DNA of 64,000 bases from Phyllosticta citribraziliensis (taxonomy: Eukaryota): contig NW_027117348.1 of assembly GCF_038025025.1 (NCBI RefSeq), forward strand, positions 620,001 to 684,000. The letters run 5' to 3'. Positions 1-45,221 of the stretch are shown here, in pieces. The notes under the pieces are model-generated. The model was not told the origin of the DNA. It searched no databases and worked only from the letters and a program-made list of their open reading frames with translations. How positions within the stretch are numbered: position 1 is the stretch's first letter; every line of letters starts with the position of its first letter. The position numbers and the translations under genes were made by a program.

Positions 1-222
1 GCGAGGAAGCTCGCCAAGAAGAGGGTACGTCTGGACACTCCCACCACCACCACCACTGCCGCCGCCGCCACCGCCGACGCGAGCACGCCGCTCCACACAC
101 ATTCCCACCCACTCGTTCGAATACTAACTGCGCAATTGTAGCTCGGAACCTTCGGCCGTGCCAAGAGAAAGGTCGACGAGATGACCAAGGTCATCGCCGA
201 GGCCAGGAGGGCCGGCCACTAA
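1..222 (+). CDS. RPL36: 60S ribosomal protein L36 (eL36), 3' part only; exons ..1-24 and 142-222
   Basis: Manual splice gives ARKLAKKR | intron 25-141 (GTACGT..CTAAC..TAG) | LGTFGRAKRKVDEMTKVIAEARRAGH*, matching the eL36 C-terminus. Confidence 0.93.
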
Positions 223-1128
223 GCGGGAGGATGTCACGAAAAGCACAATCCGGACTTTTTCTTCCTCTTTGCTTCAGCAGCGGTTGGCGTGAATGGGGGG
301 GATCGTCGCTCTGCGCTGGGAAAATCAATCAAGACGGAGAGACAAATCATCATGAGAAAAGACGGGACTGGGCCGGAAACTAAACTTGCTCTTTTTTTCG
401 GAATGATGGGGTGTTGCTGGTCCGAGAGTCTTGCAGTAGTCTCGATTACACGAATATCCATGAAAAAGCGGCACCTCGCCTCCTGATATCCCCTTCCAAC
501 TTTGGATGGCTTGCGTTTCTTGGGCTGTGAATTTGGGCGCTACTACTAAACTTCACAGTACGGCTTCACAGTGAGGAAGAATATCGAAGCCTCATCGACA
601 CAAAACACGACCGCCACAGATGGAATCCTCGTCGAACCGACACTGCTGAGAGCACACGGCTATTCCGTCTCAGCACGACAACACGCCACTCCAAAACACC
701 CTTTCGACCACCGATTCTGCCTTCGAGAGCACGCCAGAATATCAGCTATCCAGTTCCCAACCTCAGCCCGATACAAAGCGGCAAACGCACTTCTGCAATT
801 GCCCTGTTCTCTTCCCCGCCACCAGTGACACAGCCTCACATCTCGGCCCATTGCACCCATTGAATGAACTGCATTTTGTGCCCTGTTCCCCTTGCCCTCT
901 TGCTGGATCCAGGCACTACACCACAAACAGCAACGCTCTCAACGCTCCCAACGCTGGATTGTTCCATGTCATTGCTCATCTCATCTCGTCCTATCCAGAT
1001 CCATCCATCCATCCATGCATACACGCACGCAGCTGCTACTTGGTCTGCCTTCCCCTCGCTCACCACGACAAATGAAATGCATCTATCAGTCGAAACCGCT
1101 CTGCTCTACTCCACACCAGTCACTCAGC

Positions 1129-2784
1129 CTATTTCTTCTTCCCGAACAAGCCCTTGCCCAAAATACCCCTCAGCTTGCTCTCCTTCTCCTCGGCACTCCT
1201 CGGCACCTTCCTACTCTTCTTCTCATCCGCATCCCCGTCCGCAGCACCGGCAGCACCCAGCGCGTGTCCCCCAGCACTGCTAGCAGCCTCGGCGGCCGGA
1301 TCCTTGACCTTCAACTCGGTGGCCCTGCGCGCCCACTTGTCCGCGAGCACCGGCGCGCGCCTGACCGCGACGCTCGCGCCGTCGTCCCAGGTCATGGTCA
1401 TGAGCACGCGGCCCTCGAGGCCCAAGTCGCGGACGAGCGTGACGGCGGCGTCGGGGAGCGTGACGAGGCGCGCGTTCTCCGGGGTGTTGTAGCGCACGAC
1501 GAAGCGCGCGCCCTCGTCGGCGCTGCTGGCCAGCAGGCCGCGCACCCAAGAGTACAGGTCTTTGCCCGTCTCGTCCCGGCCGAAGCGGCTCTCGAGCTGG
1601 TGTCCGTCGGGCAAGCGAACTCGCACCGTGACGCCTGCAATGGCAGCCCGGTGGGCCGCTGCGGCTTCGGCGCGTGCCGCAAGCTCGGCGTCCGATGCGA
1701 GGCGCTGGTTGCGCGTTGCGCTGGCCAGAGCGGCCTGGTGCGATTTGGCGTGCTCGACTGTGGGAATGTAGTCGGACTCGTCAAAGGTGGCTGAGAGGGC
1801 AGCGGTGGGGGTCGATGAGGAAGGAGGAAAGAAGATGGTCATGGGGCGGGTCGCTGGGTCGGTGATTTGCGGGTTCGAGTTCGAGGATTCTTGTTCGGCG
1901 TGGGGCACGTCCGTGGCTGTGGAGGAGGATGTCGCGACATTGTTGGAGCTGGTGGGTTCGGTCGTCGTGGGGGGCGGAACAGTAGTAGCGGGGGTTGAGG
2001 TCGGGTTTGTTGGAGGAGTGTCCACGTCCATGGTGGAGCTTGGATCCTCTGGTTGAGGCTCATCCACAGCCTTATCCTGCTCTAATGTTGGCGGTGCTTG
2101 TGCTGGCGCCGAAGCAGCATCTCCAGCAGAATCGGCCTGAGAGTTGCCCATCTGCGTGTCCGTTGACTCTTCAGACTCGAGACCCTTGAAGTAGTGTGTT
2201 ATTTCCGTCATGGCTTTCTCGAGAGGTTCGCCACTGTCCTTGAACTGCAGCCTCAGCAGCGCGCTGCCGCCATGAAGTCCCACTTGACCCAGCGTCTTTT
2301 GGAGATCCAAAAATGTGCCCAATTCCCGTCCCATAATGTTTATAGAGGGTATCTCGTAATGGAGTCGACCAGCGCCAGAGCTGCCAGCAGTTTGGACGGC
2401 CCTCCCGCGCTGGGTGAGGTTCACCTTTTGCTCCGCCGGCGCAATCGTCTCAAAGACGCGAAGGACTTGCCATAGTGACGCGTTGCTCGGAAACTTGTGG
2501 GTCAGACGCTGGCCGGGCTGTTCAAGTTGCAGGGCGACATTGACGACGGCGGGAGAGCGAGAGCCCTGTACGAGGTCGAGCTTGGCGCCTTGGGGGAGGT
2601 TGGCCAGGCGGATGGTACGCGATAGGTCGACGGGCTTGTTGTTGTACTTGAGGGTATAATTGTCGGCGCGGATGCCAAACTTGGCGCAGGCTTCTTGCAG
2701 GACGTCGCTGAGGGCCTTTGCCGGAGTGGTCTTGATGGTGGCCCTCCGGGCGGAAGAGTCGACGACTACAAGGTGAGACGCCAT
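1129..2784 (-). CDS. TUG/ASPSCR1-like (Ubx4-type) UBX-domain protein, Cdc48/p97 cofactor, 551 aa, intronless
   Basis: N-terminal ubiquitin-like TUG-UBL1 segment (RRATIKTTPAKALSDVLQEAC..VDLSRTIRLANLPQGAKLDL), DYIPTVEH motif and UBX segment VRVRLPDGHQLESRF. Confidence 0.88.
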   Translation of the reverse strand: MASHLVVVDSSARRATIKTTPAKALSDVLQEACAKFGIRADNYTLKYNNKPVDLSRTIRLANLPQGAKLDLVQGSRSPAVVNVALQLEQPGQRLTHKFPSNASLWQVLRVFETIAPAEQKVNLTQRGRAVQTAGSSGAGRLHYEIPSINIMGRELGTFLDLQKTLGQVGLHGGSALLRLQFKDSGEPLEKAMTEITHYFKGLESEESTDTQMGNSQADSAGDAASAPAQAPPTLEQDKAVDEPQPEDPSSTMDVDTPPTNPTSTPATTVPPPTTTEPTSSNNVATSSSTATDVPHAEQESSNSNPQITDPATRPMTIFFPPSSSTPTAALSATFDESDYIPTVEHAKSHQAALASATRNQRLASDAELAARAEAAAAHRAAIAGVTVRVRLPDGHQLESRFGRDETGKDLYSWVRGLLASSADEGARFVVRYNTPENARLVTLPDAAVTLVRDLGLEGRVLMTMTWDDGASVAVRRAPVLADKWARRATELKVKDPAAEAASSAGGHALGAAGAADGDADEKKSRKVPRSAEEKESKLRGILGKGLFGKKK

Positions 2785-3021
2785 GCTGCGCGCACGACAC
2801 AGAGGGAGCTGACGCCGATGATGGAGTAGTGGAGGAGGTTGAGCAGTCGCGAGTTGGAGCAGTCGGAAGAGTGGCGGCGGCGCGTGTCGCGAATGTTGCG
2901 GGCAGCGATGAGGACGAAGTAGGAATGGGCAAGGATGAGGAGGATGCTCTTTTCTTGCGTGGTAGCAGTGATGCCGGCAAGGTACCGCATTTCAGAGTAA
3001 AGGTTGGGCGCAAGGGTGTGA

Positions 3022-3053
3022 GGACTTGGACTTGGATTTGGACTTGGACTTGG
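3022..3053. repeat. (GGACTT)~5 hexanucleotide microsatellite upstream of the UBX gene
   Basis: ggacttggacttggatttggacttggacttgg seen directly. Confidence 0.85.
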
Positions 3054-3582
3054 TCAGTGGTGACATGGCGGGGCAGGGAACATTACCTAGGCAGGTGGAG
3101 CTCTGGCAGCAGCGGACCTGAGGCACCGGACGGGGAACTGGAATCTCATCGAACCGCCGGTAACCCTGGGTACAATACATTACCTACACGACGACTTTTC
3201 AAGAGTCACGCTGAGCAGCTGTGCATAGCTCAAGGGGTCGGGCTATGCTTGTGGGTTCTTATTTTCCTATAATGGCCTCACTCTATTCGTTTGCAAGACA
3301 AACCAATGGTCCTGTGGAACGACACGGTGTAAAAATCATGCCAAGTCCCATGACAGGGTCGCTTCATCTGCATTCTACACAACAATGTCCGTACATGGAC
3401 CCTAAGGTACATCAGATGTACTTCCATGGTGACAGCAGTCCACGTCCGTCCGTCCAGGTCCCTTTGGCGCTTGCAAGGGTTGACGAATCACGCTGCATCC
3501 GATCTTTTTCCGACCACCACCTCTGACCCGGGCCGCACAACCAACCAACCACCCATCCAACCTTTACACGACCAGCCACACC

Positions 3583-4886
3583 ATGGCTTCTGCACTTTGC
3601 AGGCTTCCGCTCCGCCCTGCACTACGACGGCTTGCTGGAAAATCCCCTGCATCCAAGCTATGGCAATCCAACAAAATGGGCGTTTGGGAACAGGAGTTCC
3701 GCAGTCAGCTGAAAAAATCCACCTCCTTTGACCTCCTCATTGCTCAAGTTCGAGCCGGAAAATATCTTAATCAGAATGCGTCTGGAAGCTCCGACAAGGC
3801 ATCAACAGCAATCGCCAGAGCCCATGTGCAAGCCGTCCAAAATAACATGCTGCCGTATTTGATGCAAATGTCCGACTGTGCCCAAGACGCGCCCAACAGC
3901 GTCTGTGTGGCGGCATACGACGAGGTCTTGAGGCTGCTGAAAAAAGGGAATGGCGTTGTGCAGCCATACCAGCTTCGCAACATCATCAAGGCCATGAAGA
4001 ATATCTCCAATTTAAGGGCACAGCATCGAGCACAACAAGCGTCAGAGTCTTCGCCACAGCAGCTTGCCGCCGCCCAGAAAGCCACCGAACCCTCCTCAGT
4101 CGGGAATCCAAGTCTCGAATCTGCTGCTGTACCAAGCCGTCAAGAAAGAACACGGTCTAAGCGAGCAACGACCACCGCTACCAAAACAGCTTCTTCCTCC
4201 CCAATCTCGCCAATCTCAACTGTCGAGCAACCTGAGCAACGATCACTTGTTTGGCGGGAGGGTCGCTTTGTAGTAAGCTCTTTCCCGCGGTATTGAAAAG
4301 GCAACTGCTTACATACATGCCCTCATTGAAGCCTGTTGAAGACACTGTCGCTACCACTGTGACAACACCAGAACCTTCCAATGGGCAGGTCTCTGCGTTC
4401 ACCCCCACCCCTGCGGCGATATCAGAACCTGCCAATGAAACGCTCGATGTATCCACTCCCACCTCGGAATCTTCCAATGGACAGGTCTCTGTATCCACTT
4501 CTGGCTCTGCTACGACACCAGAGCCTTCTAAGGAAACGGCATCTTCATCAAATTCCACCCCAGAACCTGCCAATGGACAGGTCTCAACTGCTACGACACC
4601 AGAGCCTTCCAATGAAACGGCTTCTTCATCAATATCCACCCCAGAACCCGCCAATGGACAGGTCCCAACTGAAACGGCGCCTTCGTTCACTTCCACCCCA
4701 GAACCTTCCGACGGGCAGGTCTCAACTGCTACGAAACCAGAGCCTTCCAATGAAACGGTCTCTGCTTCCACTTCCACCCCAGAATCTTCTAACGAAAAGG
4801 CTTCTGCACCTCCAAAAACGACCGCCACGGAACCACCACGCTCGAAGACGAGGGGCATAATCGGAAGATTCTTCGGTTCAAATTAA
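3583..4886 (+). CDS. Hypothetical ~414-aa protein (exons 3583-4272, 4332-4886): presequence-like N-terminus, helical domain related to the downstream array, Ser/Thr/Pro/Glu repeat tail
   Basis: Intron 4273-4331 (GTAAGC..CTTAC..AAG) joins ORFs 3583..4296 and 4251..4886 in frame; good start context (CACACCATGG). Confidence 0.65.
4362..4810 (+). repeat. Coding minisatellite: about 10 alternating PEP(S/A)NGQVS and PEPSNET(A/V)S units
   Basis: Recurring ccagaaccttccaatgg(g/a)caggtctc and ccagagccttccaatgaaacgg nucleotide blocks. Confidence 0.9.
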
Positions 4887-5496
4887 ACATCAAGCTTTCT
4901 GGCGCTGATGCTGCTGCTTCTATTTCCGCAACAGATCACTGCGATCGAATCCGCTCGGGCAGACAAGCCGCCTAGCGCCAGGCCCAGGGCTTCTCCAAAG
5001 TCAACTGGCTTTACAGGACGAACAAAGTACATGCGGGCGAGATGCTTGTAGTATGAGCTACACTGCTCGCGTCTTGTTTGAGAAGCAGGAAAGATGTGAA
5101 TCCCGGAAGCTCGGAGGAAGAAAAGCATCCGCGCTGCTGTTTACCTGGCCGCTGTAATCAACAAGATGCTTCAGGAATCAAAAAGTTGTTTATTCATGGG
5201 CTTCAAGATAGATCTGTACGATTCTACAGGAGATTTTTCTTTCTAGGTTTGAGTGTTTGGCGGGAGCGAAAGGGGGTTACAAAAGTCTTGTCAAAAAGTT
5301 TGGACCTACATTGTCTTAGTTCTCGGCGGGAGCATTCTTGCGTCCGCAGCCGCGCAAACAATGGCGTTTGGTGGGAATCACTACTTCCTTCCACTTGAAT
5401 GCCTCCTTGCTCTTTCAAACATACATCTGCCCGCAAGTTTCCCATCACGACAGGTTTTTTTCAACACCAAAACAAGCCGAAAACTCCACGCCCGCC

Positions 5497-5829
5497 ATGA
5501 CCACGTTGAGCAAAACCGCGTCCAACTACCGCTGGCAGCGCAGCAAGACGGCGCCGTTCGAGAAGCTCGCCCGCGACATCTACCTCCGCGAGCCGCCCTT
5601 CGAGCACCTCACCGACGACGAACGCGGCTGTCTGTTCGAGACGCTCGGCACGCTGGCCGTCGAACTGCTTCCCATCGCCAAGGCCACAGGCGTCGACATT
5701 TGCAACGAGATCAACAGCGACGTCAAGAGAGCGGTCGAGTACTGCTGCCGCCTGGCGCTGAGTGGCCGCTTGGAATATCTGAAGGTGGTCATGGGGGGTA
5801 TTGTTGCGGCGGTGAAGGTGATGGATTGA
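5497..5829 (+). CDS. Tandem-array small helical protein, copy 1 (110 aa, MTTLSKTASNYRWQRSK...)
   Basis: GC-rich codon usage, CCCGCCATG start context, shared FExL / ER / Cx5D / GRxxxxKxV motifs with its neighbours. Confidence 0.85.
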   Translation: MTTLSKTASNYRWQRSKTAPFEKLARDIYLREPPFEHLTDDERGCLFETLGTLAVELLPIAKATGVDICNEINSDVKRAVEYCCRLALSGRLEYLKVVMGGIVAAVKVMD

Positions 5830-6097
5830 TGGGAGGGAGGCTGTTTGAGCTTGGTCTGGGAGCGACGCGGCGCTGTGTTTTGGCAAACTGGGCTAGAGAC
5901 TTTGGTTGGAATTTTGGGCTGGCTGGTTGTCGTCACAAACAACGGGCGGGATACATATGCGTCACCGATTCAAGATAAACTGCATTCCCCCCCTCATACC
6001 TCTCGTCTTCAGTATTTTGTCAAGTCGGTTCGAAGTTTCTACTGATTAGCGAAGCGGATTCGTTTTTCTCAACTCCCCATCGAGCCTCTCTGCACCC

Positions 6098-6406
6098 ATG
6101 GATCAAGAAGACGAGTATGCCGAGCGTCGCATCAAGGCGGACATCTTCGAAAACCTAGCTTTCGACATCTACACTGCCACCGGCAGCTTCAAAGACGTCC
6201 ACACGGACGAGCGCAAATGGCTCTTCGAAGAACTCGGCTATCTCACGCACGAAACCGGAAATATCTCGTTCAAGTTGTGTGACAGAATCAAAGACGATGT
6301 CGAAGCCGCTCTCGATCGTGCTCTGACGTCGTGGGGCCACAATCGCTTCGACTACATCAAGATGGTCGTCGGAAACATCTGCGCTGCGGCGAAGAACTTG
6401 GCTTGA
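6098..6406 (+). CDS. Tandem-array small helical protein, copy 2 (102 aa)
   Basis: FENL, DER, CDRIKDD, NRFDYIKMVV motifs; TATA-like TACATATGC at ~5952. Confidence 0.85.
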   Translation: MDQEDEYAERRIKADIFENLAFDIYTATGSFKDVHTDERKWLFEELGYLTHETGNISFKLCDRIKDDVEAALDRALTSWGHNRFDYIKMVVGNICAAAKNLA

Positions 6407-6839
6407 TGATGGGGGTTGCGGAACATCGGAGAGAGACTGGGGGGGTTTGAGCATGAGGGCATGGGGGTTGGGGTTGGGGCTTGCTTGTGGAAGTTGGGTC
6501 GGTGACTGGATGCTTCAGGGGGATTCGTCAAGGCCGGGCTGTGGCAGAATTGAGAAGTCATAGAACAGACAGCACCAATCTTGCATCTTCTGGCTGACCA
6601 AAGTCCTCTGAGTTTGCTTTAAAGTTGGTTTGTGAGAGAATCGTGCTTGCCAAAGGGACTGAAGCTTCTAGTCACCGCACGCATGGCGGCCGTTCGGTGA
6701 GGTACATATATCGCAGACTGAAGAGCACTTCTCCCTGAAAGCTTCATCTTCACAGTCTCCTGCCTGTTTTTCGCTCCCTTGGCCCAGCACCATGCTACAG
6801 CCTGAATCTCAGCTCACAGCGAGCGCGAAAGAAGATTTC

Positions 6840-7148
6840 ATGGATAAAGATACTCAATACGACACCCAACGGGCGAAGGACAAGGCATTTGAAGATCTAG
6901 TCTGCAGCCTCCTGGCTCAAACCTTCCCACTCAGCGGTCTCCACCAAACCGAACGCCAATACATCATTGATCAAGTCAAACTTCTCGCTCGCGACTCTAG
7001 GCCTCTCTCTGTCTCAATGTGCCGGAAAATCGCGTCGGACGTCTCTTCCTCCCTCCAAAAAGCCTCGAAAGCGTCATCCGGCCGATACGATTTCGCGAAG
7101 ATGGTCATGGTCGACATTTCTCTCGCGGTCAAAAGTTTGACGGAGTGA
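6840..7148 (+). CDS. Tandem-array small helical protein, copy 3 (102 aa; alternative upstream ATG at 6792)
   Basis: FEDL, TER, CRKIASD, GRYDFAKMVM motifs; TATA-like TACATATATC at ~6703. Confidence 0.85.
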   Translation: MDKDTQYDTQRAKDKAFEDLVCSLLAQTFPLSGLHQTERQYIIDQVKLLARDSRPLSVSMCRKIASDVSSSLQKASKASSGRYDFAKMVMVDISLAVKSLTE

Positions 7149-7644
7149 CAGTTGGGGGGCACTGAGGGATGTGTACACGTGGGAGCTTGGTAAAGACTGC
7201 GTTGGTCTAAAAGTCTTTGCGCCAGATTCAGACATTCCTTGTCCAAGTCGGATTGTAGCAGAAGCTGGAATCATTTGAGCGCAGATACCACCAATACAGA
7301 GTTTTCTGCGTCTTGATCCAATGCCAGTGTTTGGTCGCAAAGCTGACTTGCTAGTGTGGATATCGGCGCACAATTTCAGCTGATTGATGGGAAACTGATT
7401 GATGTGCTTTCCGTCACCTCAAACCGCAGCACGCAGCCGAATATTTATGCAGCCAAAGGTAACTCTCCCTTCTGTTACTGCACCACCGCCATCTCCTGCC
7501 TTTCTAACCTCCCTCCATAATCTTCTCGGCTCAACACCAATCCAGACACAAAACTTCAAATTACCAGTATTTTCTCCATTTCCCCCCACCCTCTCGGCTC
7601 GATCCACGTCTTAAATCCACCCACGAGAAATAACAAGGGACGAC

Positions 7645-7968
7645 ATGAGCTCCAAAGACGACAAAATCCCGTACGACACCCGACGCGCCAAAGACAAAAT
7701 GTTTGAAGACTTGGTATTCGACCTGCTCCACTTGGGGATGGGAGCCGCAGCACTCTCTTGCAGCGAACGCAAATTCGTCGTCGAACAAATCAGTCTTCTT
7801 AATCGCCAAGTCATGGATCAGCCTCTCTCGGTGTGCGAGAAAATCGCAAACGATGCCAGGATCTCCATTCAGAAAGCAAAGACAATGGCGTCGTCGGAGG
7901 GTCGGCTCGAATACATGGAGATGGTCATGGCCAACATTCTTCTCAGGGCGAAGACCCCCAAGTCGTAA
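7645..7968 (+). CDS. Tandem-array small helical protein, copy 4 (107 aa)
   Basis: FEDL, SER, CEKIAND, GRLEYMEMVM motifs; N-terminus YDTRRAKDK nearly matches copy 3. Confidence 0.85.
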   Translation: MSSKDDKIPYDTRRAKDKMFEDLVFDLLHLGMGAAALSCSERKFVVEQISLLNRQVMDQPLSVCEKIANDARISIQKAKTMASSEGRLEYMEMVMANILLRAKTPKS

Positions 7969-8430
7969 TCGTTACTGTCAGACTGTCCACGCAGAGGAGC
8001 AAGATTCCGCGCCCACCACCTGAGATCAGGTCTGCGAGCTCCTGATTGCGGAGGTGAAAATGGTCGTGGCTTGGGAAACGTAAAGGCTTGGAATTGTATT
8101 GGTGCTCAGTCATGGATTGGTTTAGCCAGAGTCAGATGTCTTTGGTCTAGGGCAGATGGTAGTACCGGCCAGAAGTCTTCTCCAATTCTATGACTTCTGA
8201 ATACTGTGCTAGATCTAGTAACGGTGATTGGGCGCAAAGTCGGTTTCCAAGTGACACTGTTGATGATTGACAGGAGTATGGACTGGGCTTGCAGTCACCA
8301 CAAACAACGACGAAGAGTACTTAACCCTCTGTCGTGCCAGTGCCATTTCCCTTCCTTTCCACCAAGCCCTACAAATCCTCCTGCTCAAAACACCACCCGA
8401 ACAAAAAACCTCAAAACAACACGACCATCC

Positions 8431-8757
8431 ATGGACGCCACAATCCTTCGCGAGTGCCGCTGGCAGCGCACCAAGGCCGCGCGGTTCGAAAACCTCGTCT
8501 ACGACCTCTCCAACCAGCAAGTCCAGGGCCACCAGCTCCCCGCAAGCGAGCACCAGTTCATCGTGGAGCAGCTCGGCCTCATCGCCCGCGAGGCCTGCCA
8601 CCTCCCGCACGAGGCGTGCGACGTGCTCGCGACCGACGTCCAGGCCTGCCTGCTCAAGGCCTCGGCGGCGAAGAGTGGCCGCTTTGACTACGTCAAGCTT
8701 GTCATGGCTGATGTCTTGGAGACGGCGAGGAACTTGAGGAGCTTGAAGAAGGAATAG
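8431..8757 (+). CDS. Tandem-array small helical protein, copy 5 (108 aa, MDATILRECRWQRTK...)
   Basis: FENL, SEH, CDVLATD, GRFDYVKLVM motifs; GC-rich codon usage begins at ATG 8431. Confidence 0.85.
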   Translation: MDATILRECRWQRTKAARFENLVYDLSNQQVQGHQLPASEHQFIVEQLGLIAREACHLPHEACDVLATDVQACLLKASAAKSGRFDYVKLVMADVLETARNLRSLKKE

Positions 8758-9203
8758 TGGGGAGCAGTGGTGGCAACATTTGCGAATACGGTCTGAGATG
8801 CGCTTTACCGTTTGCTTGTGGATATCGCTTCGTCAGTTCCCCAGGGTTCATGTTCAGGATGGGTAGTGGGAGAAATACGACGTATTGGCAGAAGCCCTCA
8901 TGAGGCTTGGGAGCGTTCATCCGCGGCAGACACGAGGAATCTTGAATATTCTGCCCGATCAAAGCCAACGAACTCGCCCATCAACGAAACAAAGGGTCAA
9001 AGCCTGGAAGATAGGAGCAGAAACTACGAAGCGCTTGCTCTTGCGTAGCATTTCTGAAAAGTAGAAGATTCCACCGCTTTCAAACGTGTAGCAAGCAACC
9101 CATTTATATCGCAAAACCGTCACACACTTCCCGTTGACCACTCACTCCCAAACCCCCAACTCACCCACCCATCACTTCCAAACTCAACCGCGCAGACGCC
9201 AAA

Positions 9204-9530
9204 ATGAGCTACACCCTAACATCCTACCGGTATTTCCACTCGCGCGTCGCCCTCTTCGAAGAGCTCGCCATCGAAATGTACTTCGGGCTGCGGCCCTTCG
9301 ACGGCCTGACGCGCGAGGAGCGCTCCTTCATCTTCGAGCAGCTGGGCCAGCTGGCCAACGAGGTCAACCGCGTCGCGCGGCCCCCGCAGCTCGACGCCTG
9401 CGAGGAGCTGGTCGCAGACATCAAGAAGACGTTTGAGAGCTTCCGCGTCTCGGCGCATCATGGGCGGTGGGATCTGATCAAGATGGTCATGGGGAATTTC
9501 TTGGCCGTCTTGAAGCGGATGGAGGAGTGA
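9204..9530 (+). CDS. Tandem-array small helical protein, copy 6 (108 aa)
   Basis: FEEL, EER, CEELVAD, GRWDLIKMVM motifs; TATA-like TTTATATC at ~9103. Confidence 0.85.
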   Translation: MSYTLTSYRYFHSRVALFEELAIEMYFGLRPFDGLTREERSFIFEQLGQLANEVNRVARPPQLDACEELVADIKKTFESFRVSAHHGRWDLIKMVMGNFLAVLKRMEE

Positions 9531-9886
9531 GAGATTGAGGGGCTTGTGGTTGTGCGTGGTGCTACCTGCATTTCTTCTTGAAGGCTGAAGTCACTTGTCA
9601 GTCGAGGCCAGGTGGTCTTGGGAGGGTTGAGGACTTTTGTGGCGGGTCCAGGAGTTGGAATAGCCACTGAAATGTCGCGTGGCTGGTTCGACTAGTTCAA
9701 ATAAATTCATGAGTCGATGGAACAGAACAAGGGAACATGGCTGAGGAGACTTCATCCCAATCAATTCAGCTTTGCGCGTGCCGTCAGAAATCGTATCTGA
9801 GTGTCGTGGTATCCATCCACCATTAACCATAACGCCAACTTTTAGACCCACAAACGCCTTTCCTTGCCCAGAGTTGCTGCTCATGC

Positions 9887-10692
9887 TTAGAATCTCTCCT
9901 TCATCCTGGACGCGACGGTGCGCAGGTTGCCGTACACCTTTCCAGGCGGCGCTCCCAGAATCAGCGACACGACAGCCTCTCTTGCCACGTGAATGTTCTT
10001 GAAACCGCCCAGGATGTGGATCTTCTGGTCTGCAAGCACGATGCGGGTGCGCGATGCATTCTCAATGGCAAACTTCGTCTTGCCGTCCTTTCCAGCAATG
10101 CGGCCAATGGCGCGGCCCAAGTGGTCGCCATTCAATGTCTTGACGTCCTTGATTTCAAACGTCTCGATATAGAGGTCGTCCAGGCGGAGCAGGGCAATGG
10201 CGTCGTCGACGTCAAAGCCGAGCGTAAAGGCCTTGATAAAGTCTTCGCCTTTTTGCAGCGCTCCCGAGTCGTTCGTGTGGCGCGAGTTGCGCAGCTCGAC
10301 CACCTTGTTCTTGATGTTCATGCGCACCTGCAGCTTCAGGTGCTCGACCAGCGGCGGGTAGATTTTGGTCCACGAGGCCTTGAGCGGCGTCATGCGGTGC
10401 GGCGGGACGGGGACCTTGCGGGTTTCGACCTTGAGGATTCGAGGAATGTCTTTGGCTGGGGCAAAGTGTGGGCGGCCTTCGGTGTCGACTTGCATCTCGT
10501 CCGAGGCACTCTGTGCGGGTTCTGCGGGCTCTGCAGTGGCATCGATATCGAGCGGGACGTCGCCTTCTGTATGGCAGGTTAGAAAGGGCCGCAAATTGTT
10601 GACGGAATATTCTTGCCTTGGGGGACATCGGTCATGGCGTTGTCTTCGGCGAGAGCCTCGGGGTTGCGCAAAAGCGCAGTAGGAGCAGGCAT
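9887..10692 (-). CDS. PNO1: Pre-rRNA-processing KH-domain protein Pno1/Dim2; exons 10692-10617 and 10566-9887
   Basis: N-terminus MPAPTAL; RKVPVPPHRMTPLK and KH motif RAIGRIAGKDGKTKFAIENASRTRI; exons joined by a 50-nt GC-AG intron. Confidence 0.95.
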
Positions 10693-11006
10693 GCTGGAGG
10701 ACGCTGGTGTCGCTTTGTATGGAACTGTAGGACAGGATCAGGGCCGGGCGGCGATGTTTGAGTGGAGTCGGGGTTGGCGCTGGAAATCTTTTGAGCGAAG
10801 TGAACGCGGTGAGTAGCGCAAAGTGCTGGGCCGTGCGCCGGCTAGCGCGTGCACAGCGATCTCTTCCCGGCTTTTCGCGCCAGAAGGTCGTCATTAGCTG
10901 AAGTCCACGCCCACCTTTGCCTACAAGTGCCACGCGCGCTTCTCGTCCACTTCGGCGACCCTCACTCACGAACCCTCCAGGCCGTCATGTCCACAAACTC
11001 CCGATA

Positions 11007-13188
11007 ATGAGTCGCCATGTAGCCGCTCGGGTCGGCGGAAGAACCTCGCTTTCCATCGTCGACCTGCTCCGCAGTGCTCACTCACCATGTGCTGCGCGAC
11101 CGTTTACCCAGATCCTCCCGCCCTGGACATTCTCCGCTAGATCACTCTCGTCGAGACCTTTTGCTGCCTCATGGCGCCTGCAACACGCGCCTCGGCTCAC
11201 ACTCTCGCGTCCCTCGACGACGTCATTAGAAGGAACCGGACGCGTTCCGCCAACTTTGGCCAACCAGCCACACAAATCTCGACAAGACTCGAGGATAGCC
11301 CAAATTGCAGCCAAGGCATGGACCAGGTCTGCCTCCAGCACTGCGCGACGGCGAAGAGGCGTCTTCAACCGCCGGAACAAGAGCTCCGTCAGCGATGGGA
11401 ACCAACCCAAAGGCAATCCCGTTCAACAGGGACCCCAGCAAAAGCTGTCGCAGGACGGGAAGGTGAAAAAGACTTCCGAAGAAGCTGGCGCTCACTCCAG
11501 TAAACAGCTGCTGGATCGTCTGCCGCATCTGCCGCATCGCCCTAGCAAGGAGGAACTCCTCGCCGCTGCTAACGGAGCATGGTCCAGGTTCAAGGTGCAT
11601 TTCAAGTGGTTTTCCATCCGGAGCGGGCGAAAATTCAACATGGACGACATTAGTGCATTCTTCTCATGGATTCTCTTGGGCCACCTGGCGTGGGTCATCA
11701 TTGGAACCACCACCTTCTTTTCCCTGATCATCTTCTTGGTGAACACTGTGTTTGCGCAAGAGACTCTAGCCCGGTGGATAGGAAACTACCTCACCAAGTC
11801 GTCTGGCATCAAGGTCGTCTTCGAGTCGGCCATTGTTCCCAGATGGGGAGATGGCGTAATTTCCTTCAAAAATGTCTTTGTGTCGAGACGACCAGGACAA
11901 GGCCAGGCCCAAGTCAGCAAGGGATCGTCAGAGCAAGCAGCCGCAGCCGCTGCCGCTGCAGCTAAAGAGCGCTTCGGTGAAGAGTCAACCGAAAAAGACG
12001 ACGGAAACTACACCCAGTTTGACGTCTCCATGGAAACTGTGAATGTGACGCTGTCATTTACCAAGTGGTTCAATGGCAAGGGACTTCTCCGAGACGTGGA
12101 GATCAAGGGCGTTCGTGGCGTTGTTGACCGCACTCACCTCAAGGCACCCGAGCAATACATCGACCCGCGGACATACAAGCACGAGCACAACCCTGGTGAC
12201 TTTGAATTGGACTCGTTCAAGATGGAAGATTTGCTCGTCACCATCTACCAGCCGAATGACTTTCGGCCATTCCCAGTCAGCATCTACTCCTGCGACTTGC
12301 CCCAACTGCGCAAGCAATGGCTATTCTACGACTTTCTGGCAGCCAACAACATGTCGGGATCGTTTGACAATTCGCTCTTCACAATCCATCCACGACAGAC
12401 GCACAACTATGCCAGCGGCCAGCTCGTCTCAAGCACCGAGTCAGAAGGTGGGCCGAACCAGTGGAAAAAGCACAGCCGAATCAGGATTGACGCCCTCAAC
12501 ATTGACCACCTGAATCGTGGTGTCGCGGGTCCTTTTGGTTGGATCCACGAGGGCAACGTTGACATTGTGTCGGACATCATGTTTCCCACCGACAATGACG
12601 AAAGCATTGCCAAAGTCATGTCCGATTTCTACGACCGCATGGAGGCCACCGTCACTGCTCCTCGCAATGCCACCGACTCACTAGACCCCCAAGGAACCGA
12701 AGACCAGCCCCAGAAGAAAGTGTTGCCCAGCATTGAGCAGGCATTGACCGAAGACGACAAGCGGTTCATCGTCATGGACATACGGGTGCAGCTCAATGAC
12801 GTGCGCGCTGCCGTCCCCCTCTTCACAAACGACATTTCGTACATCAACAACGCCCTCACCCGCCCCATTGTCGCATACATCAACTCCAAGCGCACGTTTA
12901 TCCCGGTCAACTGTCGCGTCGTGAAGCGCGTCAGTGAATTCGATGGCTCCTGGACCATTTACGACAGCGGGCTTATGGACGACCTGTCGAGAGAGGTAAG
13001 CAGCCTGTTCCCTTATTGCCTTTGAAACGGTGCTGACTTTGAATTCAAAATAGGTCTACGAAGCGTTCGTCCGCGACATCAATGACGACCACCAGACACG
13101 CAAGCGCCGCTTCAAAAAGGTCGGCATCTGGACGCTTCAACTCGCTGCCCAGGCCCTCTTTATCGGGCTGGCGGGTAACATTGCGTGA
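11007..13188 (+). CDS. MDM31: Mitochondrial distribution and morphology protein Mdm31 (inner membrane); intron 12996-13053
   Basis: Arg-rich presequence; FKWFSIRS..FNMDDISAFFSW, LVNTVFAQE, DGNYTQFD, CDLPQLRKQWLFYDF motifs; last exon RRFKKVGIWTLQL. Confidence 0.92.
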
Positions 13189-13547
13189 GCGCTTGAACCG
13201 AGTCGACGAATCTTCTTCCCGGCATATGGCGGTGAAAACCAACCTGGCGAGATGCATGATACCATCCGGCCGGCGGCTGGCTTCCCTACACCCTACGATG
13301 TGCCGCCCGATCACCCCTTCTCATCTAACTCTCCTCCCTTTCCACAACTCACCCTCATACCTCCAACCCCAATCTCGAACCTCCGACCACCTACCACCTA
13401 CTCAACCAACCGATGTATTACAAAAGTGCTCTTTGTTCCTTTTCTTTCCTCCCCTTTCTCTCTTTTTCACTTTCTCTCCAGCGATGGCGTTACAGGCACC
13501 TTGGGGGCTTTCTTGGGGTGAGGAATCAAATCACCCTCACGGATGAA

Positions 13548-13570
13548 CGGACGGACGGACGGACGGACGG
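13548..13570. repeat. (CGGA)n tetranucleotide microsatellite
   Basis: cggacggacggacggacggacgg; a similar tract lies at ~58256-58277. Confidence 0.85.
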
Positions 13571-13867
13571 GATAGACTAAACAGCGGCGAAAGCGCAAAT
13601 GTACAAATGCATGCTTGCATTCTGGAACCATGAGGTGCCGATCAAGTGGTAGTGTGGGTGATTGAGTATGTGTCAGCTGAACAGTGCCAGAAGGAAGGAA
13701 GACGACGCGAGAGGCTACTCGCGCAAACAGACCAAACCGTGGCTAATGCGAACGAGAAATGACAGAAGAGGAGGGAGGAAGGGAAGCGGGCCTAGCCAAG
13801 GAAGGTAAAGAAATATAACCTGTTGCAACCGCTAATCCGCTATACAGCGCACCACGCAAACGTTTAT

Positions 13868-13953
13868 GGATTGGTGGCGTAGTGGTAACGCATGTCGCTG
13901 GTCCAAACGTTCGCATCCACGGCAAGTCCCAGGTTCAAGTCCTGGCCAATCTG
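13868..13953 (+). tRNA. tRNA or tRNA-like gene with a ~15-nt insertion in the anticodon loop; isotype uncertain (GGT/Thr if the intron is at the canonical position)
   Basis: Acceptor GGATTGG/CCAATCT, D arm GCGT-AGTGGTA-ACGC, anticodon stem TGTCG/CGGCA, T arm CCAGG-TTCAAGT-CCTGG, downstream oligo-T runs. Confidence 0.8.
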
Positions 13954-14611
13954 ACCTTTAGCGCTGCTCTCTTTTTGCCCTTTTCTTTTTGACTTACCTG
14001 CTGATGGGATGGTGGTGTTGAGTGGTAGCGAGGGGTCTGTGTCGGTGCCCTGATCCACGGTTGGCTGGTTGGCTGGCTGGTGGTGGTCATGGGCGTGTAT
14101 GTGCCTGAGGCTTAGGACGCATCGCTTGGCAGACGTGACCAATGGCAGCATTCACGTACGCGAGTAAGCAAGCAAAGAAGCAATGGAAGGAGGTAGGAAA
14201 GAGGAGAGAAGAAGAAGAGTGGGGCATGGGAGGAAAGAAAGGGAGACGGATCAAAGAGGAGTTGGCGTTCGTCATCTACTACTGAGCACACTGCCCACGC
14301 ACTCACCCACCTCCTCCACGAGCAGCACAACCAGATCAGTTGATTCACCATGTTTACACTCGAATGTATTCTGGAGATGATGTCTAAACCTCCTTTTGGC
14401 TCGACACACTGGTGAAAACAAGGGTTAATGAAGGATGCATATGGGCTGGGTAGAAACAGAGTGGGATTTGGGACTATGGGTATGTTGGAAGAAGATGGAG
14501 ATTTGCCACGCTGAGAATAAGTTTGCATTCCATAGGTGATTGGACATCTAGTCCACCAGGCAGAACGACCAAATGTTCACCCTCCATTGTTTTTCTCGAC
14601 GCAATGCGAGT

Positions 14612-15801
14612 CTAAGCCTTCCAAACGACAATTCTGCCGTCAACGCCACCCGTGCTGAAATTTGCGACGCGGTCACCAGCCTCCTGGTACACCCTGACCG
14701 TGTTTATGCTGTTCTGGTGCGTGGTAAGGAGCTTCGTGTCATCCTTGGCCTTGCCCTTGAGATCCATCTGCTTGAACAGCTGGCGAGCATTCTCCTCGCC
14801 GCCCTCCTCGCCGCCACCGCCCAGTCGGGCAGGCTGCACGGCCTTGGTCTCCAGCGCGCCGGCCAGCGCCCAGCCGCCCTCGTTGCCCTGGAAGCGGTAC
14901 GGCTCGCAGTCGTAGCCGGCGGCGACGATTTCCGATTCGGAGGTCCAGATGAGGCCGACAAAGGGCAGCAGCTGCGTCGTCACGCTCAGCACGGCGCGCG
15001 GCGGCGCGTCCGGCGCAGAAGGGTACACGACCGTGACGGAGCTGTCGTGCGCGGCAAACGCCAGCGCGTTGCCCGATGGCGAGAACGCAACCCCGTGCAC
15101 CCAGCCCGCCGTGTTGTTCAGGAATTCGCCGCACACGGTGTTGAAGGGCAGGCGCTCGCCCCAGGCGCTGGGCTCCGGGCGCTGATCGACGCCCTTGATG
15201 AAGGCGGAGAAGACGCGCGCGTGGCCGTCGGCCGATCCGGCGCCCAGGAGGACCGAGTTGGGGTGCCAGGCGATGCTCGTGATGGTGCTGCGGATGGGCT
15301 TCTTCAGGTGCTTCGACACCCACCAGTCATTTTCTTCCTCAAAGTAGCAAATGGCAATGACGCGCGCTCCGCTGCCGACGGCGAACTTGTCCTCGGACGG
15401 CGACCAGCGCACGCAGGTGGCGGCGCGGTTGATGCGGAGGAGGACGAGGGTGGGCTTCCAACCGGCCGGCGACGGCTCCCAGACGTAGGCATTGCGGTCT
15501 GGTAGGATTGTCGTTAGTTGGGGATTCAGGGATGGCATGGCTGGGGCCTGAATTGGGTCGCGGTGGTGTGGTGCGTACCTTGCGAGCAAGTCACAATCTT
15601 GCCGCTTCTGGGGGCAATGTCGACACCGGTGACGGTCTTGTCGTGACCAACCAGTTCGTCGCTGAGCTGAAAGTTCGAGCCGGAGCGCGTGTACAGCTCA
15701 ACGTTGTTCTGGCGCGTCACGGCGAGGGTCTGGCGGTCGGCGGAGAAGGAGTGGTCGACGATTGAGTGGTGGAAGAGGTGGTGGACTTCGGAGGGAGCCA
15801 T
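14612..15801 (-). CDS. ARC40: Arp2/3 complex WD40 subunit ARPC1/Arc40/Sop2; intron 15578-15499
   Basis: IVTCSQ|DRNAYVW, WKPTLVLLRINRAAT, ENDWWVSKHLKKPIRST, WGERLPFNT motifs. Confidence 0.96.
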
Positions 15802-16477
15802 TGTTTGGGATGGAGCAATAGGAGGAGCTCTCTACTATTGCTGGTGTGATGTGGTGGTTGGTGGACGGAGGGGTGCGGATTAGGAGCAGGCGTCGGGAGT
15901 CTACGATGACGCCTGTTGCGAGGACCTGAGCTAGGCCAAATAAGGCAACTTGCTCGACCGGCCATTCGACTTGGCCTCTCCACTTGACCATTTCATAGAG
16001 CACGACGATGGAAACCTTTGGAAGATGAGATGACAGGAAATTCGAGTCGTTTCAGGAAATAGTGACATGTACAGTGACTTGGGAGGTTTAATCCGTATTG
16101 CCGCCTTCGAATCGAGAGCGAATTGTTTTCCAAGACCCATTTGTCACTGGCATAAATTGACTGAGAAGCTGTTCACAGACATCGAGCAGTAGAAGTCCAG
16201 ATAGAGTGGTTTTCGTACTGGACAGTTTAGTCTGACTTCAGGTTGGAGATGCATAGGTAAAAGCGGGAGTTTCTCAGCAGCGATCCTCCAGCATCGTCGG
16301 AAAAACACCGGCTCCAACGCGCGACGCCGAGCTTCAAGACTCCATCCGTCGAGTCGGATGCTTCGCGTTCCCCTACAACTTTCACGTCCAGCGTATTCGC
16401 GAGCGCCGCCCTCTAATCCTCCGTCAGCTTGCATCCGAAATCTTCAACTTCACGTCGACGCTCCGTACCAGCCCGTC

Positions 16478-34750: not shown

Positions 34751-36799
34751 TCAATCTCTCATGGCAATGGCGCCGTTGACGCCCAGGTTGACGCGCTTGC
34801 GCAGCCCCGAGTCAATCTGGTCGACGACGACTCCCGACGTGAAGGTGCCCCACGCCGTGCACGTGTTCTTGATGGCGTCGGGGATCTGGAGCGCCTGGAT
34901 CGCGGCCGGGTTCTCGAGCGCCAGCAGGTTGAAGCCTGCGCTGTTGTGCCAGGACTGCGGAGGTCCAACGTTAGCAAGTCACGTCCTCCTAAATGAGAGG
35001 GGACAGAATGGGAGGAAGCTTACAATGTGGCAATGGAACGGGTTGATCTGCGCGTGGTCCAGGTTGTACTGAATCACAATGTACGAGGGCACGCCGTCCG
35101 TTCCGCCCTGCACAATCTGCGTGTCACGCAGCTGGGGGTTCTGCGGGTTCACCACGGTCCCATCCCAGTGTCCCTTGCCCTCAGCGAGCACCCAGAAATC
35201 ATGACCGTGTAAATGCATCGGATGCGGCATTGCGTTGTGGTTGTAGACGACGAGGCGGACGGAGGAGTTGGTGCCGTAGTTGTGGACGTTGGCGTCGGGG
35301 GGGAAGCTAAAGTCGCCCTCGTTTGCCTGCAGCAGCAGCGCCGTGTTGTAGTCGGCGCGGAAGGTGGCGCCGCCAAAGTAGAAGAGGTTGTGCGTGCCGT
35401 TGTTGAGGGCTTGGATGGGCACGTCGACGGTCATGTCCGGGGTCGGCGGCGCGCTGGGGTTGAGGGGGGTCGTCTGCGACAGGGGGTCGTTGCCACAATC
35501 CGTCTGCATGGAATCCGGCTGGGCAGTCGACGTGGGCACGCTCGAGGTGTCGGCGCTCTCGTAGTAGATGATGCCGAAGGCTGTCTGAGCATTGGGGTTG
35601 TTGTCGTTGCATCCGCCTGCCTTGCGACCCGGTCCAATGTTGGACCGCACCCAGAATGCACCGTCAGAGCCTTGGTTCGCGGTGACAATGACATCGGTGC
35701 GCTGGCCAACGCCAATCGTCACAGCAGTGGCGGTATACGGGTTGATGGGAATGTAGTCGTTGGCAATGACCGTCATGGTGTGCCCGTCAATCGAAAACGT
35801 CTGCGTTGCGTCCGAGCCAGAGTTGATCAAGCGGATACGGTACGAAGTACCAGACTGGAACTTGAACTTGGGGACGCCGGCATTGGGAGTGCAAGGCAGG
35901 TCAGTCTGAGAGCAGTCAAAGGTGCCCATTCCATTCATGATGTTGTTGTCCGAGACTGGAGGAGGAACGTGCTGAACGGCAGGAGCCATCGTCTGCTCCA
36001 CCAAGTCGTAGTAAGACTGGTGGTACCAGTCGGAGAGCATGATTGGGCCGAGGTCGACATCGTACTGCGTGTTCTGCGTGGTGTTTGGCCCGTAGATGAT
36101 CATAGGTCCCACGGCGCCCCCAGAATATTGAGCGGAATAGTGACTGTGATACCAGGACGTGCCGTACTGATCCGCTCGGAACAGGTAGGTCAGGCTTTGA
36201 CCGGGAACAATCGGACATTGCGTCACACCGGGCACGCCGTCCATCCACGGCGTCTCCTTTTGCAAAATGCCGTGCCAATGAACGGATGTTCCTTCGTTCT
36301 TGGCACCCAGTTCGTTGTGGACGGTAACTGAAATCCAATCACCCCTGGGACGTGTCAGAAGGCGACTACCGTACGAGAGGCTAGTCAACTCACCAGTTGG
36401 CTTCTATCAGCGGACCCGGGTATTGTCCATTGAAGACGATGCCTTCTCTTTGCACTCCATCAGGGGCAATGTTTTGGTAAGAGACGGTCAGGTCGTAGTA
36501 GCGCGTCACGCCCGTGTCGGGCATATCGTTGTAGTCGACACCTCTGGCCATGAGCCTCGACCCAGCTTCGCCGTCGAGGTGGGATGGCAGGTGCGGCGCG
36601 TTAAACGTGCCAAGAAGACTGCCGCCTGGAGCCAAATCAGTTTCGAATTCCACGAGGTCCTGAACGTAAGTGACGTACCGTTTATGTCTGCAGAAGACAG
36701 ACCCGCATCAGTCTTGCCGACTGCAGACCACAGCTCTGGACCACCAGCGGCATGGCTTGCAGCCAGACTGCGCACCACTGACCGGGCAAGAAACGACAT
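34751..36799 (-). CDS. Laccase / multicopper oxidase (AA1); introns 36678-36626, 36393-36345, 35023-34955
   Basis: Copper-binding motifs HWHG, WYHSH, HPMHLHGH, HCHI|SWH; C-terminal IDSGL. Confidence 0.94.
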
Positions 36800-43401: not shown

Positions 43402-45221
43402 ATGCCGGGAGTGATCGCTTCACTCAAGGAGAGTTGGTACCTCTTCTCTCCGTCCGAGAAAAAGAACATCGCCCTGTACATAATTGGTATTATGCTGTAC
43501 AAGTTCGGTATGGAAAAATTCATGGATTCCAAAGAGAGGCAAAGAGGAAGGAAGGAAGAAAAAGAGAAGGATCTCTGGCATCACATTGACTAACAGCTTC
43601 TTTAGGACTTGAGGCTTTCAACGGTTCAATTACAGCACTGGCAACAAATCGCTACGACTGGGAAGCAGAACAAGCCGGAGTACGGGCAAAAACCTTTCAG
43701 AGAGTCGGACTGCTCCAGGGACTCAACCAGGCGTTCCAATGTGTTGGCGCCATCCTGATTGCGCCTCTGATCAAGCGCTGGCCCACCAGGCTAGTTCTGT
43801 CTGCCGCAATCGTCGTCTTTGGTGTCTTGACGGCACTACTCCTGGTCATCGACGCGTCGACTGGAGGAAAGATACGGCCGTCGAGCGTGACAGATGACGA
43901 CGACTACAGCTACTACGGTATGTGACCCCGAACTTTCGGAAAATATTTCTCTAACTCCGGGCAGGGGATTACAACACCGACGGAATGATTCCCGTTTACA
44001 CCATTGCCGGTATCGCATATGGCATGGTGGAACTCATCAGAAGAGTCATCCCTCGTGACATTGTTGGCGGCAATGTACAGAAGCTGCGGCGAATGGGTAA
44101 GTGCACACGCACATCCAAGATTGAGAGCCAAAACTGATTTTGTAGACGCTTTGGTCCACATTTTCTACGAAATTAGTGGAACATCAGGTGCCTTTTGCAC
44201 CGCGCTGGGACTAATTCCCAATCTCGGCAACAACATGGCCTTCATTATTACACCGATTTGCTTTACCCTCGCCGCCGTATCCTGGTACTTCGTTTCCAAC
44301 CTCAACTTCGTCTCGAGTCTCGAAGACATGGACAACGCCAACTACTTCACGAGCGTCTGGACCGGCACAATCCTATTCTTCAAGTCCGTATGGACTGGCG
44401 GCAAAATCATCTTCTCCTCGCGCAAGACCATCTGGCTGCTCCCAGGATACACAGTGGCCCTTTATGGCCATCGATACCTCGAGAACGGCATTGCTCCAGC
44501 CGTTGCTAAGCGTTACCTCAAGAACTCGGCGTGGTCGCAAATCATGGTCGGCGGTAGCAACTTTGGCGAGCTCTTCGGCGCCCTCTTCGTCTTCCTCTTC
44601 ACCAACCTCATCACCACGCCCATCCCGTGGCTGCGGCTCGACGCTCTGTTCCTCCTCATCGTATGGTACCTACCGTACTGGTACCCACCGGCGAACCAGG
44701 TCAACCAGGCCTGGATTGTCGCAGCGACCTTCCTGCCCGTTTCGTTCGGCTGGGCGGCTGGAGATGTGTCCCTGGCAGCCTACATTCAAGCCACGCTCGC
44801 CCGGAAAGAGGACGAGAACAAAGATGTGTCCGCTCTCGGCGCCGTCATGGCCTTTTTGTACAGCTCGTACATCGTCATTTACGCCATTGCCAACCCACTC
44901 CTCGGAGACTACATCGACAGCGTTTACGCGAAGACCGGAGGCAGCAACGGCGGCAACATCCACGAAGCTATCCGCAACGTGGCCGGCGTGCAGTTTACCC
45001 TCATCTGCGTCATTGTGCTTAGCGCGTCGCTTATCCCTAGGGGTGCGATTGCGTTCAACCCGAAGATGCTGTACGGCGAGAGCTTGGAGCGCGAACTCGA
45101 CGAGGAGTCGACGGGTTCGCTCAACAAGAAGAATGCCGAAGTCGTGGACGGCGAGAAGGACACCACGCAGATTGAGGAAGAGACGATCAGGGGCGATAGC
45201 CACTCGCCTCCGAGGGCGTAG
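43402..45221 (+). CDS. MFS-like multi-pass membrane protein; three introns (~43508-43606, ~43918-43964, ~44097-44145)
   Basis: Spliced IGIMLYKFG|LEAFNGSI..GLNQAFQCVGAILIAPLIKRW..ELIRRVIPRDIVGG..RRMD|ALVHIFYE; many hydrophobic helices. Confidence 0.8.

Follow-up and report, generated by a model that had tools for sequence, protein, structure and literature searches.

Small proteins that are limited to one genus, encoded in tandem and without a Pfam match are known from filamentous fungi as orphan tandem families, and in Phyllosticta one third of the orthogroups that hold a gene of this genus (3,764 of 11,352) have been reported as confined to it (PMC9073689). The locus considered here lies in a 64,000-nucleotide stretch of the genome of Phyllosticta citribraziliensis (RefSeq assembly GCF_038025025.1, contig NW_027117348.1, positions 620,001 to 684,000 of the forward strand; hereafter the window, to whose positions all coordinates refer) and is like these families in each of those respects: six short genes, copies A to F, belong to an undescribed family of predicted four-helix proteins and form a tandem array of long standing, beside which lies a probable parent gene, N. 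It differs from them in that its copies are non-secreted and intronless, lie among housekeeping genes with no repeats and no signature of repeat-induced point mutation at the array, and have been fixed as old orthologues, with a probable full-length relative adjoining. P. citribraziliensis itself has been described as a citrus endophyte (PMC6859488).

Four-helix bundles of similar size form the HeLo, HeLo-like, MLKL and RPW8 (CC-R) domains, and in HeLo-type executors, which bring about cell death when they oligomerise, the N-terminal helix is expelled to make a membrane pore (10.1101/2022.03.16.484565). Such domains align with the fold predicted for the Phyllosticta copies at Z 6.0-6.6, which is a generic level, but the copies have no sequence match to them and a polar helix 1, and no NLR or amyloid signalling partner was found among 36 open reading frames (ORFs) of the window that were scanned. 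SPECT1 of Plasmodium (PDB 4u5a) is also a genus-restricted four-helix bundle (PMC4257719); unlike the copies, with which it shares 6-8% identity, it has 180 residues and a hook insertion and is a host-traversal protein, and the likeness is most likely, on the predicted models, one of shared arrangement only. Compared with small secreted effectors, the copies have charged N-termini, no hydrophobic stretch and one conserved Cys. A parallel in genomic logic is offered by the CARD-only and PYD-only proteins encoded beside caspase-1, which are single-domain tandem paralogues near a longer gene with the same domain. Those proteins have the death fold, a six-helix Greek-key bundle, whereas a four-helix bundle is predicted here.

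The array spans approximately 4 kb between conserved flanks. Its six members are listed below, with GC content at third codon positions (GC3) for A, E and F.

5497-5829, plus strand: copy A, 110 residues, predicted four-helix bundle; GC3 0.86
6098-6406, plus strand: copy B, 102 residues
6840-7148, plus strand: copy C, 102 residues; an in-frame ATG at 6792 gives 118 residues
7645-7968, plus strand: copy D, 107 residues; nearest paralogue C (41-42%)
8431-8757, plus strand: copy E, 108 residues, slowly evolving; GC3 0.90
9204-9530, plus strand: copy F, 108 residues, slowly evolving; GC3 0.89

All six co-oriented ORFs named in a preliminary description of the sequence were found, 601-805 bp apart from start to start, and they are intronless, intact and alignable end to end. 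Pairwise identities are 25-41% (local-alignment z 12.7-38.0), and in all 15 pairs the real score was unreached by any of 1000 shuffles, so that the full-length paralogy first seen by eye is upheld and the likeness is clearly better than that of shuffled sequences. The motifs proposed as shared largely hold, with eight positions invariant across the six copies (F21, E22, L24, E42, C69, D75, R91 and V98 in the numbering of A), although copy F has H-x-R where the first motif gives R-x-K. The longer form of copy C, starting at 6792, is the version in the P. citrichinensis record P0008. When the 1294 stop-to-stop segments of the window were scanned with a profile in six frames, the six copies appeared at E < 1e-33 and nothing beyond them fell below E 1. 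DNA similarity among the copies has nearly vanished, and the duplications must thus be old; together with the intact frames and the orthologue clades of A, B, E and F discussed below, this agrees with the earlier proposal of old duplications that have been kept. A, E and F have a GC3 of 0.86-0.90 and B, C and D one of 0.60-0.70, against an intergenic GC of 0.49-0.54. The regions upstream of the six copies share no DNA similarity, only short words; one of these, GTCAC, precedes five of the six copies and occurs 50 times on the plus strand of the window, and no motif is claimed.

Relatives were sought with a single round of HMMER, using a profile of the six sequences against 1.84 billion proteins. 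This returned 15 matches, all at E < 1e-10, and none between E 1e-10 and 1e-3; for 14 of the 15, a member of the matched cluster is named as Phyllosticta. A word-indexed search with a 27-sequence alignment retrieved only four already-known members, and two metagenome scans gave no relative of the family. Judged from sequence, the family is so far seen only in Phyllosticta, and this marks the limit of detection: remote relatives may exist, since the search was a single round with a six-sequence profile that also misses N. The lineage-specific, diversified family that had been proposed is thus borne out, both by matches that trace to Phyllosticta and by the retention of orthologues. In P. citrichinensis, P. 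citricarpa, P. paracitricarpa, P. citriasiana and P. capitalensis the members have accessions that follow one another directly or nearly so, and in ten public models neighbouring copies (or N and A) are fused (P0007, P0012, P0013, P0015, P0017, P0019, P0020, P0029, P0037 and P0038); both observations indicate that the array is tandem in these five other species as well. The fusions run through predicted introns, and the locus is widely mis-annotated; the database relative of the left-flanking UBX gene has an accession that adjoins that of the fused A+B model. As public models fuse neighbouring copies, the family is hidden from orthogroup analyses. No description of it was found in the literature, subscription journals and bioRxiv supplements aside, and some supplement might still carry it as an orthogroup without a name; no paper was found that pairs Phyllosticta with a four-helix bundle, and the JGI protein numbers of 12 members matched no Phyllosticta row in the available supplements of PMC9073689.

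Relationships within the family were examined in a tree of 26 domains, made after removal of P0039, which is degenerate, and of duplicates that were identical or nearly so. Copies A, B, E and F each fall in a starred orthologue clade that joins P. citribraziliensis with the citricarpa/citriasiana group, and such pairing implies that the duplications are old and have been retained. Copies C and D have their partners in P. citrichinensis and are joined by a C-like P. paracitricarpa copy (support 88/87). Identities to P. citrichinensis are 96% for A, C and E and 97% for D. Across the split, they amount to 59% for A (P. citricarpa and P. citriasiana), 50% for B (P. citriasiana), 52% for C (the C-like copy), 82% for E (P. 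citricarpa and P. citriasiana) and 87% for F (P. citriasiana), figures of 50-87% that stand without a genome-wide baseline for that species pair. No D record occurs among the citricarpa-group sequences retrieved. P. paracitricarpa has an extra copy, G, after F (P0020, residues 63-160), for which the six-frame profile scan showed no counterpart between 9530 and 9887 of the window. In P. capitalensis eight copies are clear and a ninth looks degenerate; these are 16-41% identical to one another and at most 36% identical to the P. citribraziliensis copies, with no supported one-to-one orthologues in the tree, and their origin as a single clade is not rejected (p-AU 0.168). Average nucleotide identity has been given as 95.98% for P. 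citriasiana compared with P. citricarpa and 81.19% for P. citriasiana compared with P. capitalensis (PMC6965161). Read from these comparisons, the history of the family is one of slow birth-and-death with long-lived, presumably specialised paralogues.

Most copies differ little from strain to strain (98-100% identity), and A and B are identical to a second record. Fungal allorecognition (het/vic) genes are marked by alleles that diverge strongly within one species and by incompatibility reactions between these. A local divergent stretch appears at copies cap7 and cap8 of P. capitalensis when P0019 is compared with P0029, P0032 and P0024. In one strain's model, 12 of the 108 residues of cap7 differ (89% identity), all of them past residue 39, and the same model retains 52 of the 80 residues of cap8 (65%; 28 differ). 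The five other P. capitalensis copies are 98-100% identical between models, from few strains. The divergence may come from a haplotype kept in balance, from an exchange of paralogues, from a cryptic species or from an artefact of the gene model.

An AlphaFold model of copy F, built on 27 sequences, is a four-helix bundle (helices 3-26, 37-56, 63-79 and 88-106; pLDDT 89, pTM 0.81), in agreement with the helical protein that had been anticipated. A death fold, which had been suggested as a candidate, is unsupported since the model has four long helices rather than six. Foldseek searches with copy F against PDB and BFVD, and with N against PDB, gave no E below 0.001; in the ESM Atlas the best value for copy F was 0.77, under the lead threshold, and N had no usable match. 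In a wide VIA fold search with copy F, SPECT1 came first (Z 9.3, rmsd 2.8 over 104 residues, 6% identity), followed by designed bundles, and the 50 matches listed included Rx-CC (Z 6.6), NRG1 CC-R (6.1) and MLKL (6.0). Helical bundles need a Z of about 13 in VIA, and the matches obtained are at the level common for such folds. No enzyme fold occurred among the Foldseek or VIA matches. Pfam gave no family match for the six copies or N; across 27 members the best E was 0.019, with unrelated families in at most three of the 27, and the best E in a PDB sequence search was 0.16-0.2. That no family had been recognised earlier agrees with these searches.

Which residues face the core was assessed from helical moments over 18 non-redundant members, a measure of periodicity and not of coordinates. 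The sole residue invariant in all 18 is the Cys, which is also present in 29 of 29 aligned sequences and in N; the Asp that had been called invariant with it is so in the six copies but stands at 15 of 18 in the wider family, and the helix-4 Arg at 13 of 18. The Cys lies 16 degrees off the core-facing moment of helix 3, which makes catalysis unlikely, and neither a conserved His nor a second conserved Cys was seen in the 18 members. The suggested catalytic or ligand site of Cys, Asp and Arg is consequently unsupported. Inward positions other than the Cys are F18, L21, L47, L50, I69, I73 and I99. Most of the charged residues that are conserved lie on a flank or an outer face, where they could form intramolecular salt bridges. 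Three conserved hydrophobic positions point outward, namely 42 (Phe in 9 of 18; Phe, Tyr or Trp in 13), 49 (Leu in 11 of 18) and 94 (Met in 11 of 18), and suggest an interface; Tyr91, on a flank, is kept in 13 of 18. Core positions are 51% identical among the six paralogues, and flank or outer positions 27-29%. Of 28 outer positions, 23 are retained by the orthologue pair of E and as many by that of F, against 16 in C, 13 in A and 11 in B. The best 19-residue Kyte-Doolittle mean ranges from 0.70 to 1.27 across the copies, with no hydrophobic segment. Helix 1 has a mean hydrophobicity of -0.20 and a polar, charged character, which argues against a hydrophobic helix of the HeLo type and not against a charged one of the MLKL type. 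The charged N-termini, lack of a hydrophobic stretch and single conserved Cys fit the reported absence of a signal peptide, transmembrane segment or Cys-rich pattern, although the signal peptide was judged without a predictor.

Between the left flank and copy A lies a further gene, N, which the preliminary description had passed over in placing the array directly between UBX and PNO1; the flanks were rightly named, but N separates UBX from copy A. These genes, and the parts of N, are as follows.

3583-4272 and 4332-4886, plus strand: gene N, 414 residues in two exons, upstream of copy A
3583-3672, plus strand: presequence-like start of N, 30 residues with six Arg or Lys and no Asp or Glu
3664-4041, plus strand: four-helix-bundle domain of N, residues 28-153, model pLDDT 84.7
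4332-4886, plus strand: tail of N, rich in Ser, Thr, Pro and Glu, with eight PE[PS][AS][NDK][GE] repeats, closing in a short stretch that is basic and amphipathic
1129-2784, minus strand: TUG/UBX-domain gene, the housekeeping gene of the left flank (PF11470 and PF00789)
9887-10692, minus strand: PNO1-type KH gene of the right flank (PF22891), convergent with F

N is a spliced orphan, with a GT..AG joint (4272/4332) present in contigs of two sequencing runs and open reading across it. Its start resembles a mitochondrial presequence in composition, and the P. citriasiana orthologue has seven Arg or Lys and no Asp or Glu in its first 30 residues; the P. citrichinensis model P0017 begins at the second Met of N. 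N adjoins A in three species (P. citribraziliensis and those of the fused models P0017 and P0037). Its model, which rests on an alignment of three N sequences, has helices at 4-30, 44-73, 78-94 and 101-125 of the domain, with a longer link between helices 1 and 2 than in the small copies. N and the copies are in register (F22 and C81 against F18 and C66): in N as in F, helix 1 carries Phe-x-x-Leu and ends eight residues past the motif Phe, and helix 3, which has 17 residues, carries the Cys at its fourth position. The best VIA match of N is again SPECT1 (Z 9.2, rmsd 3.0, 103 residues), 21 of its top 50 are shared with F, and MAPEG proteins stand high in its list. When tested with a profile of four blocks that accommodates the longer first loop, N scored z 3.8-4.3 in P. 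citribraziliensis and 6.3-6.9 in P. citriasiana. At most two of 1000 shuffles reached the score, those preserving the hydrophobic pattern included, and both N sequences beat all 183 window decoys as well as their own reversed sequences; their block scores are 16.5 and 33.6, against 86-135 for true members. The domain is 51% identical between the two species. A search for relatives of N gave one match, in a range of 416-2000 residues beyond which orthologues of about 414 residues or fewer would fall. N is probably homologous to the small copies, as a distant seventh member.

Evidence of expression comes from two runs (X1 and X2), neither of them on record as RNA. Three introns of the region are skipped in both, and the runs thus contain spliced RNA. 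Contigs lie over N, A and F in both runs and over B in X1; they are without strand, start or level, and DNA admixture is possible. An unspliced X1 contig (4812-6390) crosses A and reaches 6390 in B without a joint, and X1 has a contig over F at 9002-10336. In X2, A (5477-5787) and F (8953-9471) each have a contig of their own. The passage of the first of these X1 contigs from A into B without a joint leaves the fused A+B model P0007 unsupported. Depth over N is about 850 in X1, a single figure per contig that implies no ranking. Copies C, D and E are uncovered, with nothing in bins 6421-8505 and a depth of 2 in one run at 8506-8922, and this is no evidence of silence. The PNO1 intron at 10567-10616 (minus strand) reads CT..GC on the plus strand and so is of the GC-AG type in the coding direction; both runs are spliced here, with the cut position ambiguous by 2 bases.

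On the predicted fold and residue pattern, we give even chances to a reading of the copies as soluble, non-catalytic, single-domain four-helix bundles that act as putative protein-binding modules and form an old Phyllosticta tandem family, whether as small adaptors, inhibitors or self-associating subunits. The family and the bundle of N would share an ancestor, the small copies being without the presequence-like start and repeat tail. Local duplication would have multiplied the copies before the citrus-associated species split, with specialisation following. The fold would be held by the shared core of Phe, Leu and buried Cys and by flanking salt-bridge residues, and the conserved outward hydrophobics on helices 2 and 4 would provide the binding surface. 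E and F may keep a slowly changing partner while A, B and C change fast, each paralogue perhaps having its own partner or stage. Several observations weigh against this reading. The fold matches are generic for helical bundles (best Z 9.3), and at that level the fold says nothing on function; the core and outer calls derive from helical moments and not coordinates; and dN/dS among the paralogues is saturated (pS 0.38-0.77, pN 0.39-0.55) and uninformative. Transcripts running on from N or PNO1 could contribute to the cover over A, B and F. As for N, its HMMER match of 2.0 bits was equalled by 285 of 5000 shuffles, its hhalign matches are weak (P 0.013 and 0.033; probability 3.3% and 0.8%), the block test was designed after its likeness had been noticed, and it lacks the outward hydrophobics at 42, 49 and 94 in the block register.

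Other explanations draw on the same evidence. The copies might instead be domain-only regulators of N, truncated paralogues that bind it or compete for its partners or import machinery, by analogy with the CARD-only proteins; this is unlikely, if not strikingly so. The copies adjoin N in the same orientation, N and A being neighbours in three species, the bundle fold and register are common to both, and the 51% identity of the N domain to P. citriasiana is similar to that of A, B and C (50-59%). E and F, however, are far more conserved than N, which does not share the outward hydrophobic positions; were N mitochondrial and the copies not, contact could occur only before import; and no P. capitalensis orthologue of N was retrieved in a search spanning 416-2000 residues only. 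An allorecognition or cell-death locus, with HeLo/MLKL/RPW8-like executors, guards or antidotes under balancing selection, is a little harder to credit. The earlier suggestion of allorecognition or immune adaptors gains from the divergent cap7-cap8 haplotype (11% and 35% beside copies 98-100% identical), from copy numbers that vary between species and from the Rx-CC, NRG1 CC-R and MLKL domains among the 50 listed fold matches. Their Z values are nevertheless generic and below those of SPECT1 and designed bundles, the Pfam models for HeLo, HeLo-like, Goodbye and SesA match none of 27 members at E <= 1 (a range in which filters discard most matches over about 0.1), helix 1 has a polar, charged character, and no NLR or HET gene was found among the 36 window ORFs scanned with Pfam. 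Most copies, moreover, hardly vary from strain to strain and have become fixed as orthologues, and the cap8 comparison uses fused models and may set paralogues, or P. paracapitalensis and P. capitalensis, against each other.

The remaining proposals concern what a small helical protein might hold or build. A role as small soluble carriers of lipids or hydrophobic ligands, or as sponges for them, with copy-specific pockets, is suggested by the internal hydrophobic cavity of SPECT1 (PMC4257719), the best match of both models, and by the high rank of MAPEG proteins for N; the identity is 6-8%, the Z falls under the roughly 13 required for helical bundles and the core is filled by conserved large hydrophobic residues, which leaves this idea doubtful. 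The tight cluster, near-equal lengths, conserved outward hydrophobic patches and retention of orthologues would suit subunits of a single obligate hetero-oligomer whose composition is fixed, an idea raised at the outset that we now hold very unlikely: a fixed stoichiometry is weakened by copy number and identity that vary between species (six copies here, an extra one in P. paracitricarpa, eight or nine in P. capitalensis), P. capitalensis copies are without supported one-to-one orthologues, and rates differ widely among copies. Least probable are thiol enzymes or metal or ligand sites formed from Cys, Asp and Arg. The Cys is present throughout the 29 aligned sequences and in N, but it sits on the core stripe, Asp and Arg are kept in 15 and 13 of 18 members, and there is neither a second conserved Cys or His nor an enzyme fold match.

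Elsewhere in the window, a Peptidase_C14 (caspase-like) domain (E 6e-13) was detected in a 723-codon frame at 59022-61193 (minus strand), 50 kb from the array and with no link to it shown. A multicopper oxidase gene of the laccase type lies at 34979-36403 (minus strand), and long frames at 43989-45270, 56055-58121 and 47500-48285 (all plus strand), without a Pfam match at E 0.001, are candidate genes only. Rfam, run over 1-16000, gave one tRNA gene (13868-13953, plus strand; RF00005, 49.9 bits) and nothing besides.

Until joined by a partner or phenotype, this is a well-behaved orphan family and not a new mechanism. A bolder combination, which we regard as doubtful, would make the locus a new fungal regulatory or non-self module: N, a bundle protein with a repeat tail, directed to mitochondria, the six to nine copies beside it, tail-less and untargeted, serving as domain-only modulators (decoys, inhibitors or antidotes) through homotypic contacts of their bundles, and balancing selection in P. 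capitalensis maintaining polymorphism at the array's youngest end. If true, such a decoy module would repeat the logic of the CARD-only proteins with an unrelated fold. Among Phyllosticta gene families, the HET-domain family has been reported as expanded in P. capitalensis (PMC6612112), and in another account three families are expanded and 165 contracted (PMC12506662). A family that has been expanded and kept where most contract may underlie a genus-specific trait.

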